Of a stretch of DNA of 12,682 bases, positions 3,198 through 9,387 are shown piece by piece. The notes beneath the pieces were generated by a model. That model searched no databases and was not told where the DNA came from. It saw only the letters and a program-made list of their open reading frames with translations. The translations under genes were made by a program, and so were the position numbers. Numbering within the stretch: position 1 is the stretch's first letter; every line of letters begins with the position of its first letter. The DNA comes from a virus, in the UHGV virus genome UHGV-0126489, one strand, 5' to 3'.

Positions 3198-3587
3198 TCA
3201 GGCGGCTGCACCCGCCGTTTTCTCGTACTTACTGATAGTGATCTCGACCTTCCCTTCCGGGATAACCGGTCCCCACTCCACCAGCATTCTTTTCACCTGA
3301 CTGTCGTCTTCCCACACACCCGCGTGGGTCAGGGCGTCAAACAGCGCCTTGTTATAGTTGTCCAGATCGCGGATCCGGTTATCCGGAGGAAACAACACGA
3401 TCTCCACTGAAGCAGGTGCCGACGTTGGTTTCGGCAGACGACGTAACTGCTCAACTATTGCTGCGCACGCCGCGCTCTGGAATTTTCGCCCCGCCGCGCT
3501 TATCAGGCTCTTACCAGCAAACGCCCCTTTGTTGGGGTGTCTCCAGTACGTGTTCACGCTGGGCGGAAAAGGCAGGATCAGCTTCAT
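3198..3587 (-). CDS. rusA: RusA-family Holliday junction resolvase, 129 aa
   Basis: MKLILPFPPSVNTYWRH... plus conserved RDLDN and DAL motifs. Start ATG overlaps the upstream stop (ATGA). Confidence 0.8.
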   Translation of the reverse strand: MKLILPFPPSVNTYWRHPNKGAFAGKSLISAAGRKFQSAACAAIVEQLRRLPKPTSAPASVEIVLFPPDNRIRDLDNYNKALFDALTHAGVWEDDSQVKRMLVEWGPVIPEGKVEITISKYEKTAGAAA

Positions 3588-3910
3588 ACTTTCAGGTCCC
3601 TCTCATGTAACCAGTGGGTTGCACGCAGCCTTGCGTTTTCCTCACCGGCAAGCAGTGCGCGGATAATCCCGACCGCCTCGCTGTCGTCGTCCTTCACCGC
3701 GGTATGAAGCGTTATCCCCCGGGCCACGCCACGCTTTATCGTGATGACGCCTTTTTTCTCCAGTGCGCGAAGATGCTCCACCGCTGCATTCACTGAACGG
3801 TATCCCAGCATGGTTGCCACCTCCTGATTAGTTGGCGGGAAGCCACGTTCTTGCTGGTAAGAAATCAGCATATCCAGCACCTGCTGCTGGCATTGAGTTA
3901 ACGTCGTCAT
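3584..3910 (-). CDS. LexA N-terminal DNA-binding-domain-only protein (winged helix), 108 aa, no S24 peptidase domain
   Basis: LTQCQQQVLDMLISYQQERGFPPTNQEVATMLGYRSVNAAVEHLRALEKKGVITIKRGVARGITL aligns with LexA residues 1-70 (from memory: [55 protein letters not shown]). Protein ends after about 40 more residues with no Ser/Lys dyad. ATGA overlap with the upstream gene. Confidence 0.6.
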   Translation of the reverse strand: MTTLTQCQQQVLDMLISYQQERGFPPTNQEVATMLGYRSVNAAVEHLRALEKKGVITIKRGVARGITLHTAVKDDDSEAVGIIRALLAGEENARLRATHWLHERDLKV

Positions 3911-7175: not shown

Positions 7176-7207
7176 TTCTGTCTCCCGTTAAATTACGTTA
7201 AGCAGAA

Positions 7208-7272
7208 ATGTAGGATATCCAACATGCCAATGTCAAGAATCCTACATGGGCATGTGGTAGGATTGCCTACAT
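7208..7272. promoter_or_regulatory. OR-like tripartite operator with divergent promoters (pR on minus strand; pRM region on plus)
   Basis: Three 18-bp sites: 7208-7225 ATGTAGGATATCCAACAT, 7230-7247 ATGTCAAGAATCCTACAT, 7255-7272 TGGTAGGATTGCCTACAT. Minus-strand TTGACA (7236-7231) - 17 nt - CTACAT (7213-7208). Site 3 overlaps the repressor ATG at 7271. Confidence 0.6.
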
Positions 7273-7915
7273 GATGAACATGAGTGATCGTATTCGCCAA
7301 AGGCGAAAAAAACTGAACCTGACACAACAAGCACTGGCTGATTTGACTGGTGTGAACCGTGTCACGGTTACTGGATGGGAAAAGGACGACTACCAACCAA
7401 ATGGAGCCAACCTTCAAGCCCTAGCCAACGCACTTAAATGCGATCCTCTGTGGCTTGTTAGCGGAAAAGGCTCGCCTGAACCAAAGATAAATCTAAAACC
7501 TGAAATATTCGCAGTTAAAAAAGTCCCCCTCATCTCGTGGGTTCAGGCGGGTTCATGGACAATGACGGAGCCTGGTGTCAGGAAAGAAGATGCTGAAGAG
7601 TGGGTTTATACTACCGCCCTTGTATCAGAAATGGCATTTGCACTACGGGTCCGTGGTGATTCAATGACCAATCCCCTCGGCTCACCATCGATACCAGAAG
7701 GTTCTATCGTTATCGTAGAGCCAGATATTATTGATACAGAGTGTATTAACGGAAAAATCGTTGTTGCCCATATCAATGGTGGGCAAGAAGCGACACTCAA
7801 AAAATTTGTTGAGGACTGGCCGAACAGGTATCTCGTCCCACTAAATCCTAACTATAAAACTATTGAATGCGGTGAGAACTGCAGAATAGTTGGTCTTGTC
7901 ATAATGGATTTTTGA
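7271..7915 (+). CDS. Prophage repressor, P22 C2 / lambda CI type (XRE HTH N-terminal domain plus S24 LexA-like autopeptidase), 214 aa
   Basis: N-terminal HTH (IRQRRKKLNLTQQALADLTGVNRVTVTGWE); C-terminal GDSM Ser nucleophile motif and downstream Lys; collinear with recalled P22 C2. Start could be any of the ATGs at 7271/7274/7280. Confidence 0.85.
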   Translation: MMNMSDRIRQRRKKLNLTQQALADLTGVNRVTVTGWEKDDYQPNGANLQALANALKCDPLWLVSGKGSPEPKINLKPEIFAVKKVPLISWVQAGSWTMTEPGVRKEDAEEWVYTTALVSEMAFALRVRGDSMTNPLGSPSIPEGSIVIVEPDIIDTECINGKIVVAHINGGQEATLKKFVEDWPNRYLVPLNPNYKTIECGENCRIVGLVIMDF

Positions 7916-7935: not shown

Positions 7936-7961
7936 AAAACCGGGGTATCCCCGGTTTTTTT
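7936..7961 (+). terminator. Rho-independent terminator after the repressor gene
   Basis: AAAACCGGGG - TAT - CCCCGG followed by TTTTTTT (7955-7961). Confidence 0.7.
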
Positions 7962-7977: not shown

Positions 7978-8031
7978 ATGTAGGATAACCAACATAAACT
8001 CTTGACACTTGCATGTTGGATATCCTACATT
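7978..8031 (+). promoter_or_regulatory. OL-like operator pair with pL-like promoter directed rightward
   Basis: Sites 7978-7995 ATGTAGGATAACCAACAT and 8013-8030 ATGTTGGATATCCTACAT. TTGACA (8002-8007) - 17 nt - CTACAT (8025-8030). The segment 8002-8030 is nearly identical to the pR segment on the other strand. Confidence 0.55.
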
Positions 8032-8148
8032 TGTTTTTAGAGTTGTGGTGAATGCGCAGGCTGATTCGCGAAAGACATTGCAGCTATTGCGGAAAAGAGC
8101 TGTTCGGCGGGGCAATTAAACGCCCGTATCTGGAGGTTAAAGAACAAA

Positions 8149-8424
8149 ATGAAAGTCCAGATTTTAAACAATAACTGTGAAGTCGTTTGGTCATACGACA
8201 TAGCCGCCCCTGTAGATCAGAGCGGCGATAGCTGGACCAATGGGAAACATCAGATTATGGCTGGAGTTGTGTTCTCTTTACGCCGTGCTTTGGAACAGGC
8301 TGAAGTATTTCCATCAGACCCTGAATGGAAATGGCCTTTTTCTATTTGTCCAAATTCGGAGAGTACATTTCAGAAAATTGGTCAGAAAGTCGCACTCGAA
8401 GAGCATCAGCCAACTGTTTCCTGA
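8149..8424 (+). CDS. Hypothetical protein, first ORF after pL (91 aa); no arginine-rich N-like motif
   Basis: ATG at 8149 with GGAGG 11 nt upstream; Trp-rich, protein-like. Overlaps the convergent 81-aa ORF by 83 nt. Confidence 0.35.
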   Translation: MKVQILNNNCEVVWSYDIAAPVDQSGDSWTNGKHQIMAGVVFSLRRALEQAEVFPSDPEWKWPFSICPNSESTFQKIGQKVALEEHQPTVS

Positions 8425-8587
8425 TTTTTTCAGGTAACTCGTCGGCATCGCAGAAACAACAACGCTCGATCATGTTGAAAGCCGATTCGTAGAACTGTTT
8501 CTGCTGAGTGTCGCTGAGACAGGAAAAGAGCGACGTTACGATGATTTTATTAATTGCATTATCAAGTTCTTTTTCATCAAAAGTCAT
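8342..8587 (-). CDS. Hypothetical small protein (81 aa), transcribed against the pL operon
   Basis: ATG at 8587 with AAGGA 7 nt upstream; helical-looking translation containing CCFC. Confidence 0.35.
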   Translation of the reverse strand: MTFDEKELDNAINKIIVTSLFSCLSDTQQKQFYESAFNMIERCCFCDADELPEKIRKQLADALRVRLSDQFSEMYSPNLDK

Positions 8588-8840
8588 TTGATTTTCCTTT
8601 TATGTATACGGGCTTAAAAGGATACCACCGAGCCTGAAGTGGTGAAAAGACAGGCACATAACAGCTAAGTATTTTCAACCAGAGAGAATCCTTAGCGTTG
8701 TGGTGAATGCGGCTCAGCGCACGCGGGTTAAGGTTGAGGCTGACAGTCGACCTTCTGTGGATACCCACCCGTCTGGTGTGCAACCTTCGCCAGGCACCGG
8801 GAGGCACCCGGCACCACAACTTTATGCTGTGTGTAGTCCT

Positions 8841-8887
8841 GGCGGTACCAGTTTGTACCCTTGCTTCAGGCTGGTACCGTCCTTTTT
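8841..8887 (+). terminator. Candidate intrinsic terminator / structured RNA 3' end
   Basis: GGCGGTACC(AG) pairs with (CT)GGTACCGTCC around a 19-23 nt loop, followed by TTTTT at 8883-8887. Orientation matches pL transcription. Confidence 0.4.
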
Positions 8888-9024
8888 ACAAAACAGAGAA
8901 GAGCATCACCGGACGACGGGCTCATAACCCAATCCATCCGGGCGGCTGCCGCCGCAGGTGTTCTTCTCTGTTTTGTGGAGAAACTAATCGGCCTTGCAGG
9001 GTCGATATGATGAGGAGCAGCAAA

Positions 9025-9387
9025 ATGGCTAGCGAACGCAGTACTGATGTGCAGGCATTTATTGGGGAGCTGGACGGCGGCGTATTTGAAACCAAAATCG
9101 GCGCAGTTCTCAGTGAAGTCGCTTCCGGTGTGATGAACACGAAAACCAAAGGTAAGGTCTCGCTCAACCTGGAAATCGAACCATTTGATGAGAACCGTGT
9201 GAAAATCAAACACAAACTCTCATATGTTCGCCCGACTAACCGCGGGAAAATTTCCGAAGAAGACACCACCGAAACGCCGATGTATGTCAATCGCGGTGGT
9301 CGCCTGACTATTCTGCAGGAAGACCAGGGACAATTACTGACTCTTGCCGGTGAACCTGACGGAAAACTCCGCGCAGCAGGTCGTTAA
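9025..9387 (+). CDS. yfdP: YfdP-like protein of unknown function, 120 aa
   Basis: ATG at 9025 with GAGGAG 7 nt upstream. The ORF track's 226-aa version includes a non-coding, structured upstream part. Length equals recalled K-12 YfdP (120 aa); gene order yfdP-Q-R-S matches. Confidence 0.5.
   Translation: MASERSTDVQAFIGELDGGVFETKIGAVLSEVASGVMNTKTKGKVSLNLEIEPFDENRVKIKHKLSYVRPTNRGKISEEDTTETPMYVNRGGRLTILQEDQGQLLTLAGEPDGKLRAAGR

Follow-up and report, generated by a model that had tools for sequence, protein, structure and literature searches.

A close described counterpart of the locus considered here is the sieB/esc/sas region of phage P22, a superinfection exclusion B system with an antisense switch (PMC12197685, PMC13397905, summarising Ranade & Poteete 1993), in which sas is described as the antisense RNA that switches the translation of sieB (PMC12197685, PMC13397905). 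A second point of reference is the e14 prophage of Escherichia coli K-12, whose ymfI-ymfJ pair is listed from RNA sequencing (RNA-seq) as a convergent excludon; ymfJ is SOS-induced, its mRNA (by up to 4.8 in log2 fold change) and its protein YmfJ both increasing at a late stage of this response, with a smaller change in ymfI (PMC12288877, PMC11002266). Here we compare with these systems two convergent small open reading frames (ORFs) of the virus genome UHGV-0126489, a stretch of 12,682 nucleotides (nt) that we refer to as the window and that corresponds to the early region of a lambdoid E. coli prophage resembling SfV, e14 and CPS-53. ORF A (8149-8424, plus strand, ATG start, 91 amino acids (aa)) heads the pL operon, a position that it has in common with N, and ORF B (8342-8587, minus strand, ATG start, 81 aa) is a convergent cargo gene whose 3′ end overlaps that of ORF A by 83 nt (8342-8424). 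This geometry, just after pL, had been described in an earlier reading of the window (the original prediction), with which the list of ORFs agrees exactly. We find that ORF A and ORF B are both genuine genes under purifying selection, with cores that abut end to end, and that a shared upstream element and the gene order place ORF A in the ‘N slot’ and ORF B in the ‘sieB slot’ of lambdoid phages.

The element that defines the slot lies at 8624-8658 and is identical at 33 of 35 nt to lambda 34394-34428 and to P22. A blastn search of phage records finds it in 149 of them, including lambda and P22, where it stands just upstream of sieB. The order of genes is equally close: lambda reads pL, nutL, N (plus), sieB (minus), element, ral; P22 reads pL, gene 24 (plus), sieB (minus), element, ral; and the window reads pL, ORF A (plus), ORF B (minus), element, an STnc100-like RNA and yfdP. 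The original prediction had spoken of a rex/sieB-type position, which holds for the slot but not for its products, as neither protein has any similarity to SieB or Rex. In P22, sas is a discrete RNA of ~105-127 nt; as sequenced (AF217253 11513->11387, from a small-RNA sequencing study), it is read from the pL strand, begins at the start codon of sieB and has at its 3′ end a hairpin, UUCUCG...CGAGAA, followed by the pseudoknot CCACCGAGCCUGACGUGGUUAAAAGACAGGC. The P22 RefSeq record NC_002371 places both P_sieB and the start of the sieB RNA between the element and the ATG; sieB transcription thus starts downstream of the pseudoknot, and the element belongs to sas in P22 rather than to the sieB mRNA. 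By sequence, structure and position, the regulatory cassette of the window is the sas/sieB-upstream element. On the plus strand, which is the pL strand, the segment 8585-8660 is by its geometry antisense to the Shine-Dalgarno (SD) sequence and start codon of ORF B, and homology and positional equivalence to P22 sas point to a putative sas-like antisense RNA over this segment, its ends being approximate.

Homology between clades ends ~70 nt past the start of ORF B, and this stretch is more conserved than the coding sequence. It contains the hairpin S3 (8595-8622), in which 8595-8602 pairs with 8615-8622 in the minimum-free-energy fold and one arm is the complement of the ORF B SD, AAGGAAAA (8599-8592, minus strand), itself kept in all clades at 7 nt from the ATG. 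Each of the 42 distinct variants that were folded forms S3, the stem being built from several different sequences, and at one stem position all four Watson-Crick combinations are seen. Next to it lies an H-type pseudoknot (8624-8655), formed by S1 (CCAC 8625-8628 with GTGG 8639-8642) and S2 (GCCTG 8632-8636 with CAGGC 8651-8655), with a loop L1 of 3 nt and an A-rich loop L3 of 7-8 nt (8643-8650 here). Over 27 distinct sequences, 99.2% of cells are paired, compared with at most 34% when the partners are slid by 1-3 columns, and three pairs are changed on both sides against 0.3 in shuffles. Rfam gave no gathering-level match on the window and, at E<=10, none over the hairpin or pseudoknot. A consensus scan flagged the S1 stem-loop (8624-8643) as a terminator-like site of the minus strand, a reading that we reject because the U-run is not conserved; the ‘rho-independent terminator’ annotated in SfV (window 8575-8607) shows no convincing hairpin.

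The same bases might instead act on the minus strand, within the leader of the ORF B mRNA, where the hairpin and pseudoknot would sequester the SD or stabilise the transcript, for example as a thermosensor or protein operator. Such a role would suit the pairing of one hairpin arm with ORF B's own SD in most variants, the position of the element, always 31-39 nt from the cargo ATG, and four loci (L129, L156, L158 and L003) in which minus-strand G-U pairs correspond to plus-strand A-C mismatches. However, the mapped sieB start of P22 lies downstream of the element, which is found in the sas RNA; the sequence upstream of the pseudoknot is unconserved between clades, so that the cassette would not carry along a promoter located in it; and the geometry of loops L1 and L3 is canonical on the plus strand only. 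We consider a leader function unlikely for these reasons and favour the assignment of the element to a sas-like RNA.

The cassette is also far from confined to sieB. A search with a degenerate pseudoknot pattern shows that ~25 Enterobacterales genomes carry the element, and the cargo gene behind it differs by locus, encoding proteins of 63-163 aa that are all of unknown function. Thirty loci yield 15 cargo clusters, among them sieB of lambda/P22 and ymfI of e14, and 14 of these 15 are unrelated to ORF B; besides sieB and ymfI, they include at least 12 other unrelated families of small cargo genes. The N-slot proteins of the same loci, likewise of unknown function, form 12 clusters that are mutually unrelated. 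The sas cassette is therefore a portable element that serves many cargo genes and is not specific to sieB.

Public records disagree on which of the two ORFs is a gene. SfV calls the plus ORF alone (orf33), vB_EcoM-720R4 and the RefSeq Prokaryotic Genome Annotation Pipeline (PGAP) call the minus ORF alone, and PHROGs holds both as families of unknown function, ORF A in phrog_3195 and ORF B in phrog_3311. Our sample comprised 101 sequences, the window and 100 loci, with 39 distinct DNA variants that have a complete 439-nt core; relatives among virus contigs were gathered with divergent queries, near-identical copies having dominated the first scan. Both ORFs are intact in 39 of the 39 distinct complete cores, and a decay of one of them through stop codons, for which the original prediction had proposed to look, is not seen. 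The distance from the ATG of ORF A to that of ORF B is exactly 439 nt in every complete core, and the alignment is consequently gapless even at 65-70% DNA identity, which is the level shared by the five clade representatives used to analyse codon positions and pN/pS (the ratio of non-synonymous to synonymous change). Over core positions 1-207, variability falls from third to first to second positions in the frame of ORF A, with a pN/pS of 0.36, while over positions 277-439 it follows the frame of ORF B, with a pN/pS of 0.25-0.32; wrong-frame controls give 0.9-1.8.

Since each ORF carries a coding signature in its own frame, the alternative that only one of them is real, which had been left standing alongside the convergent pair, is rejected. 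A version of it in which one ORF is a gene and the other its antisense shadow could appeal to the public annotations, each of which, among those examined, calls one ORF, and to the fact that long antisense ORFs are common. Against this, substitution is biased to third positions in the ORF's own frame over the non-overlapping part of each, where the opposite frame behaves like the non-coding controls, and both ORFs have homologues at 27-60% identity with conservative replacements; we regard a shadow as extremely improbable. Each gene also has a plausible ribosome-binding site, as had been noted before. That of ORF B is good, at the 7-nt spacing given above, while the SD of ORF A, GGAGG (8132-8136), stands 12 nt before the ATG, a rather long spacing compared with the 4-6 nt seen in relatives (GAGGA, AGGTG or AAGGAA).

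The overlap itself tells a different story from the two cores. Within the shared stretch (core positions 208-276), the frame of ORF B is dominant, with variability in the order B3>B1>B2 and a pN/pS of 0.58 for B versus 1.09 for A. The tail of ORF A as a whole evolves in its own frame like non-coding sequence (pN/pS 1.1-1.4), and the conserved core of ORF A is 8149-8355 (aa 1-69), the tail beyond it being unconstrained. Its stop shifts in position, giving proteins of 91, 93, 122 or 162 aa. We also asked of the 122-aa forms if their long open tail could be a selected extension, and this candidate is rejected: the extension is unconstrained (pN/pS 1.38), and upon randomisation of ORF B's synonymous codons the open length of the A frame inside B is at chance level (P = 0.27-0.79). 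Overlap at the 3′ ends is common in the slot, occurring in 27 of 30 loci by 4-308 nt; at the loci without it, the lambda genes abut, and a short gap separates the genes of P22 and those of one other locus. The 83-nt overlap is unselected, a by-product of tight packing. The original prediction had likened the arrangement to that of some toxin-antitoxin (TA) and exclusion modules; a designed overlap is contradicted by the unconstrained tail, its chance-level length and the frequency of overlap in the slot.

Homology and structure prediction of both peptides, put forward originally as a check, yielded no toxin-antitoxin, exclusion or defence match. Neither ORF shows any likeness to N, SieB, Rex, toxin-antitoxin or defence families in Pfam, PHROGs, PADLOC or NCBIfam. 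The Pfam matches of both ORFs are weak and sub-threshold throughout, all far below the curated cutoffs, and ORF B has none to a SieB family at E<=0.1. For ORF B, PADLOC gives one weak sub-threshold match, to SspC (E 0.035), and NCBIfam another, to a methionine adenosyltransferase subfamily (E 0.19); neither database gives any for ORF A. The AlphaFold2 (AF2) model of ORF B has a predicted local distance difference test (pLDDT) score of 74 and contains three helices in a generic three-helix bundle, for which the best Foldseek match in the PDB has an E of 2.5. Its maximum Kyte-Doolittle hydrophobicity over 19 aa is 0.80, compared with 1.73 for lambda SieB and 3.01 for P22 SieB, no transmembrane-like segment is present, and the protein clusters apart from lambda and P22 SieB. 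ORF B is thus predicted to be a soluble three-helix protein. The candidate identity of ORF B as SieB itself was discarded, given the lack of sequence similarity and of a hydrophobic segment.

These results bear on a further possibility, namely a strict toxin-antitoxin module of the addiction or abortive-infection kind, in which one protein would be inhibitory, the other its direct antidote, and the overlap a means of type I-like antisense control. Two small co-inherited genes at constant spacing, convergent transcription with an antisense RNA element, and a prophage location are all features that such a module would display. Nonetheless, no toxin-antitoxin or defence family is matched in Pfam, PADLOC or NCBIfam, and the overlap region is under no special constraint. 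The cassette is moreover shared with many unrelated cargo genes including sieB, which makes it a property of the slot and not of the pair, and the promoters are opposed and differently regulated rather than those of an autoregulated operon. A strict toxin-antitoxin module is accordingly a poor candidate, and we give it little weight beside the sas-type reading developed below.

The distribution of the two genes points to a relationship between them. Homologues of ORF A share 35-68% identity overall and 58-68% in Salmonella and metagenome assemblies, and each contig with a homologue in the latter range also has an intact convergent homologue of ORF B. The homologues of ORF B in Klebsiella, Salmonella and Yersinia each lie opposite an intact ORF A. 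Both genes are intact in E. coli, Salmonella, Klebsiella and Yersinia lineages and co-occur in every lineage examined. An exhaustive profile search with the core of ORF A returned family members, fused and remote forms, and otherwise low-complexity noise, and a scan of genome contigs with back-translated ORF B patterns gave no match. Among complete E. coli genomes, the module (at least 80% of the query covered) is found in 404 of 5,426, or ~7%. The association extends to remote relatives. In the remote pair of locus L184, A has ~35% identity and B is much more divergent, having lost its CCxC motif, with both genes intact; in L183, where A occurs as a fusion with another N-slot domain, both are likewise intact. 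In SfII, no more than 73 nt remain from the start of ORF A, another pair having taken the place of B and the remainder of A together. The cargo cluster formed by the ORF B family (C11) is paired with an A-domain protein in eight of eight loci, whereas two other clusters (C1 and C7) have several different N-slot partners. That A and B are kept together across very deep divergence while other slot pairs are reshuffled suggests that A is the functional partner of B.

Two side observations concern the architecture of these modules. The fusion in L183 (2489-3079, protein P0064) and a second one, P0065, are proteins of 192-198 aa whose C-terminal half is the A domain and whose N-terminal half is a ‘MEFKDLP’ domain (phrog_9419/33007), which also heads the first pL gene beside other cargo genes; first pL genes therefore appear to be modular, with a common N-terminal domain and a cargo-matched C-terminal domain. 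In the Yersinia locus L178 (reverse complement, 3418-3908), the A/B module is directly followed on its 3′ side by a second convergent pair of small genes, whose products have 86 aa for the pL strand and 65-77 aa for the opposite one, and convergent modules can thus be stacked in tandem.

An association of this kind need not imply a joint function. ORF A might be a regulator of the pL operon, standing in for N or another early regulator, and ORF B an unrelated accessory gene kept beside it by abutment. ORF A does lie exactly at the position of N and gene 24; the module is separated from yfdP by a hairpin with a U-run that resembles a terminator (8843-8885) and would call for a read-through mechanism; and ymfJ, the e14 counterpart, is SOS-induced. 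However, an arginine-rich motif is absent from ORF A, which has 0 Arg in its first 25 aa and is net acidic (K+R 7 versus D+E 11), and the boxA sequence CGCTCTTTA has no match with up to one mismatch on the plus strand between pL and ORF A. The identification of ORF A as a lambda N-type antiterminator is rejected on these three grounds. As for a regulator of another type, the N-slot proteins fall into 12 unrelated clusters, and the A domain accompanies B also in fused form and at 35% identity, where other combinations of N-slot and cargo genes have been reshuffled. We consider this broader proposal doubtful, and return to A as a partner of B.

We propose, with a probability of roughly one half, that A and B, co-inherited in the N and sieB positions, are made mutually exclusive in their expression by a sas-type switch, and that B is an exclusion or host-modifying protein which A neutralises or replaces. 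ORF B would be an accessory (‘moron’) gene of the prophage, oriented against ORF A, expressed in the lysogen and probably transcribed from a weak candidate promoter that overlaps the hairpin-plus-pseudoknot cassette (8646-8619, minus strand; -35 TTCACC 8646-8641, a 16-nt spacer, TGg 8627-8625 and -10 TATCCT 8624-8619). A TAT-N2-T sequence is kept at this place in all cassettes of the compact type (TATCCT, TATCTT or TATGCT) and is absent in lambda and P22, where the cassettes have 38 extra bases that hold the mapped P_sieB. The distance from the ATG to the pseudoknot is 36 nt in the window versus 74 nt in P22, and with this compact spacing the promoter of ORF B cannot sit at the position of P_sieB. 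ORF A would be made only once the repressor has lost its activity, or else from a related phage that enters the cell. Firing of pL would then produce transcripts through ORF A and onwards, in antisense, across the whole of ORF B. It had been anticipated that pL transcription is antisense to the minus-strand gene, and it must indeed run across ORF B; given the 83-nt coding overlap, the A and B transcripts must overlap if both are made. By homology to P22 sas, the segment that ends in the hairpin and pseudoknot may persist as a stable sas-like RNA and mask the SD and start codon of ORF B. Expression of A and B is most likely mutually exclusive, in the manner of an excludon with a sas-type switch. 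SieB aborts the lytic growth of superinfecting phages, and Esc, an in-frame product, protects the phage itself. By analogy with SieB and Esc, B could serve the lysogen as a protein that acts in exclusion or modifies the host, and by analogy with SieB, Esc and sas, A could neutralise or replace B in the phage's own lytic growth; a function of the pair in exclusion and self-protection is one that we infer by analogy only. For this phage we infer each of these steps, from the ORF B promoter and the antisense RNA to mutually exclusive expression and biological function.

Several observations weigh against this proposal. For both proteins, family and fold searches provide no hint of function, and the structure model of ORF A is unreliable (pLDDT 45). 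ORF B is not membrane-associated, unlike SieB, and when the sequence of ORF B was inspected by eye for an internal, Esc-like start, no candidate was found to be preceded by an SD, Met39 lacking an AGGA upstream. Since there is no intergenic space between the genes, the co-inheritance of A and B could partly reflect physical linkage. On the side of the RNA, single-sequence folding z-scores are weak (-1.2 and -1.5), and with such unremarkable energies the evidence for structure is comparative; the plus strand is the more stable in 33 of 42 folds, yet several of the G-U/A-C cases favour the minus strand. A consensus promoter scan finds no promoter for ORF B, and the candidate matches 8 of 12 consensus positions and overlaps the pseudoknot. 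Finally, the sas-like RNA has no visible promoter or defined 5′ end, and no terminator follows the pseudoknot. A still wider proposal can be made, in which A and B would be an unrecognised two-protein exclusion/self-immunity (or toxin-antidote-like) system and the sas pseudoknot cassette would mark a hotspot of Enterobacterales lambdoid prophages for unrelated cargo genes expressed in the lysogen, each neutralised in the lytic cycle by a matched domain of the first pL gene. We regard this as possible, and less probable than the narrower proposal from which it extends.

The immunity region upstream of the module shows unusually high symmetry. A cI-type (LexA-family) prophage repressor is encoded at 7271-7915 on the plus strand (Pfam Peptidase_S24 1.7e-25 and HTH_3 1.1e-15; phrog_4), and a hairpin with a T-run, read from the sequence, lies 3′ of it at ~7938-7960. 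The pL promoter (8002-8031, plus strand, TTGACA-18-TACATT) matches 10 of 12 consensus positions and is accompanied by 18-nt operator-like repeats at 7978-7995 and 8013-8030; these belong to the operator-like palindromic 18-mer ATGTAGGATATCCAACAT, which has three copies, at 7208, 7978 and 8013. The pR promoter at 7236-7207 is the mirror of pL, and both are held within a 40-nt inverted repeat, 88% complementary, at 7199-7238 and 8000-8039.

The pL leader (8037-8148, plus strand) is common to mEp460-type phages and carries the SD of ORF A. A 40-aa ORF within this region (…RHCSYCGKE…, 8052-8174, plus strand) overlaps the start of ORF A and looks like the remnant of a ‘ClpX C4-type zinc finger protein’ gene; in many E. 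coli relatives, the complete gene precedes ORF A. Most relatives have a different conserved leader of ~65 nt between pL and the first gene, AACAGGCAGGACGCCCACGAAGTAGCCGCC.GGGGCATA.GAAG.CC.GGATGATTCG, of which the window has no copy; examples are SfV (L082) and e14 (L186, 1080-1150), and it occurs in 51 phage records, including ST64B, mEp237 and Yersinia, Pantoea and Pectobacterium phages. This SfV-type leader is not obviously the put element of HK022, that phage not being among the 40 records listed of the 51 phage records matched by blastn.

Beyond the cassette, a structured RNA resembling the STnc100/PasD prophage small RNA family lies at 8667-8889 on the plus strand (Rfam RF02076, E 3e-7), with a score of 41.2 bits that is below the gathering score of 47, and ends in the hairpin with a U-run at 8843-8885. 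The first 20 nt of the pL leader (8037-8056) recur at 8692-8711; with the first 20 nt of the STnc100-like RNA thus duplicated at the start of pL transcription, the A/B module looks as if it had been inserted between two copies of a leader 5′ end. In e14 of K-12, the annotated coding sequence ‘ymfH’ overlies the STnc100-like sequence, and RefSeq has a ‘frameshifted hypothetical protein’ there; both are probably mis-annotated RNA. An inverted repeat at 8888-8976, with 25-nt arms that are 84% complementary and a 39-nt loop, stands directly 5′ of yfdP (9025-9387) and may be a further leader or attenuator structure.

The slot and the sas-type cassette were known, and what is new here is the proteins of a sieB-slot accessory module. 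The conflict between public records, which call one or the other ORF, is settled in that both are genes. The regulatory cassette of P22 sieB/sas emerges as portable and not sieB-specific, with a pseudoknot that shows compensatory changes, and it marks a variable prophage locus, one instance of which is in E. coli K-12. It thereby gives a compact and recognisable place in which to seek new prophage exclusion or host-modifying proteins together with their phage counter-partners, and the model for A and B would offer a concrete account of how such cargo genes are turned off on prophage induction.

Comparison with P22 shows how much of the sieB system is retained around unrelated proteins. In both cases a minus-strand accessory gene is convergent with the first gene of the pL operon, and upstream of it lie the same hairpin and pseudoknot, which belong to the pL strand and are antisense to the accessory gene at its 5′ end; in P22 it is known that the accessory gene is expressed in the lysogen and that the pL-side RNA belongs to the lytic phase. 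However, P22 SieB is a membrane protein of 192 aa, whereas ORF B is unrelated to it, with 81 aa and a predicted soluble, helical fold, and no internal Esc start is evident in ORF B. The cassette of the window is of the compact form, and the partner gene, ORF A, is not an N-type antiterminator. Lambda (NC_001416; N 35037-35438, sieB 34482-35036) has the same order and the same end-to-end packing without a spacer, although N and sieB abut at 0 nt where the window has its 83-nt overlap, and both proteins are unrelated to their lambda counterparts.

A further close arrangement is that of e14, in which the LexA-family repressor gene ymfK, ymfJ (plus), ymfI (minus) and a compact cassette follow one another as in the window, with a 3′ overlap of 63 nt between ymfJ and ymfI, the hairpin, an identical pseudoknot and then the same STnc100-like sequence; YmfJ and YmfI have no detectable similarity to ORF A and ORF B. 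More distant parallels are provided by excludons and by type I toxin-antitoxin loci, some of which, such as txpA/RatA, have convergent transcripts that overlap at their 3′ ends. The window shares with these systems a convergent layout in which the transcripts would overlap if both are made, and which predicts mutual interference. In the window, however, conserved proteins are the products of both partners, and the conserved regulatory RNA element is found not in the 3′ overlap but where the minus-strand gene has its 5′ end.

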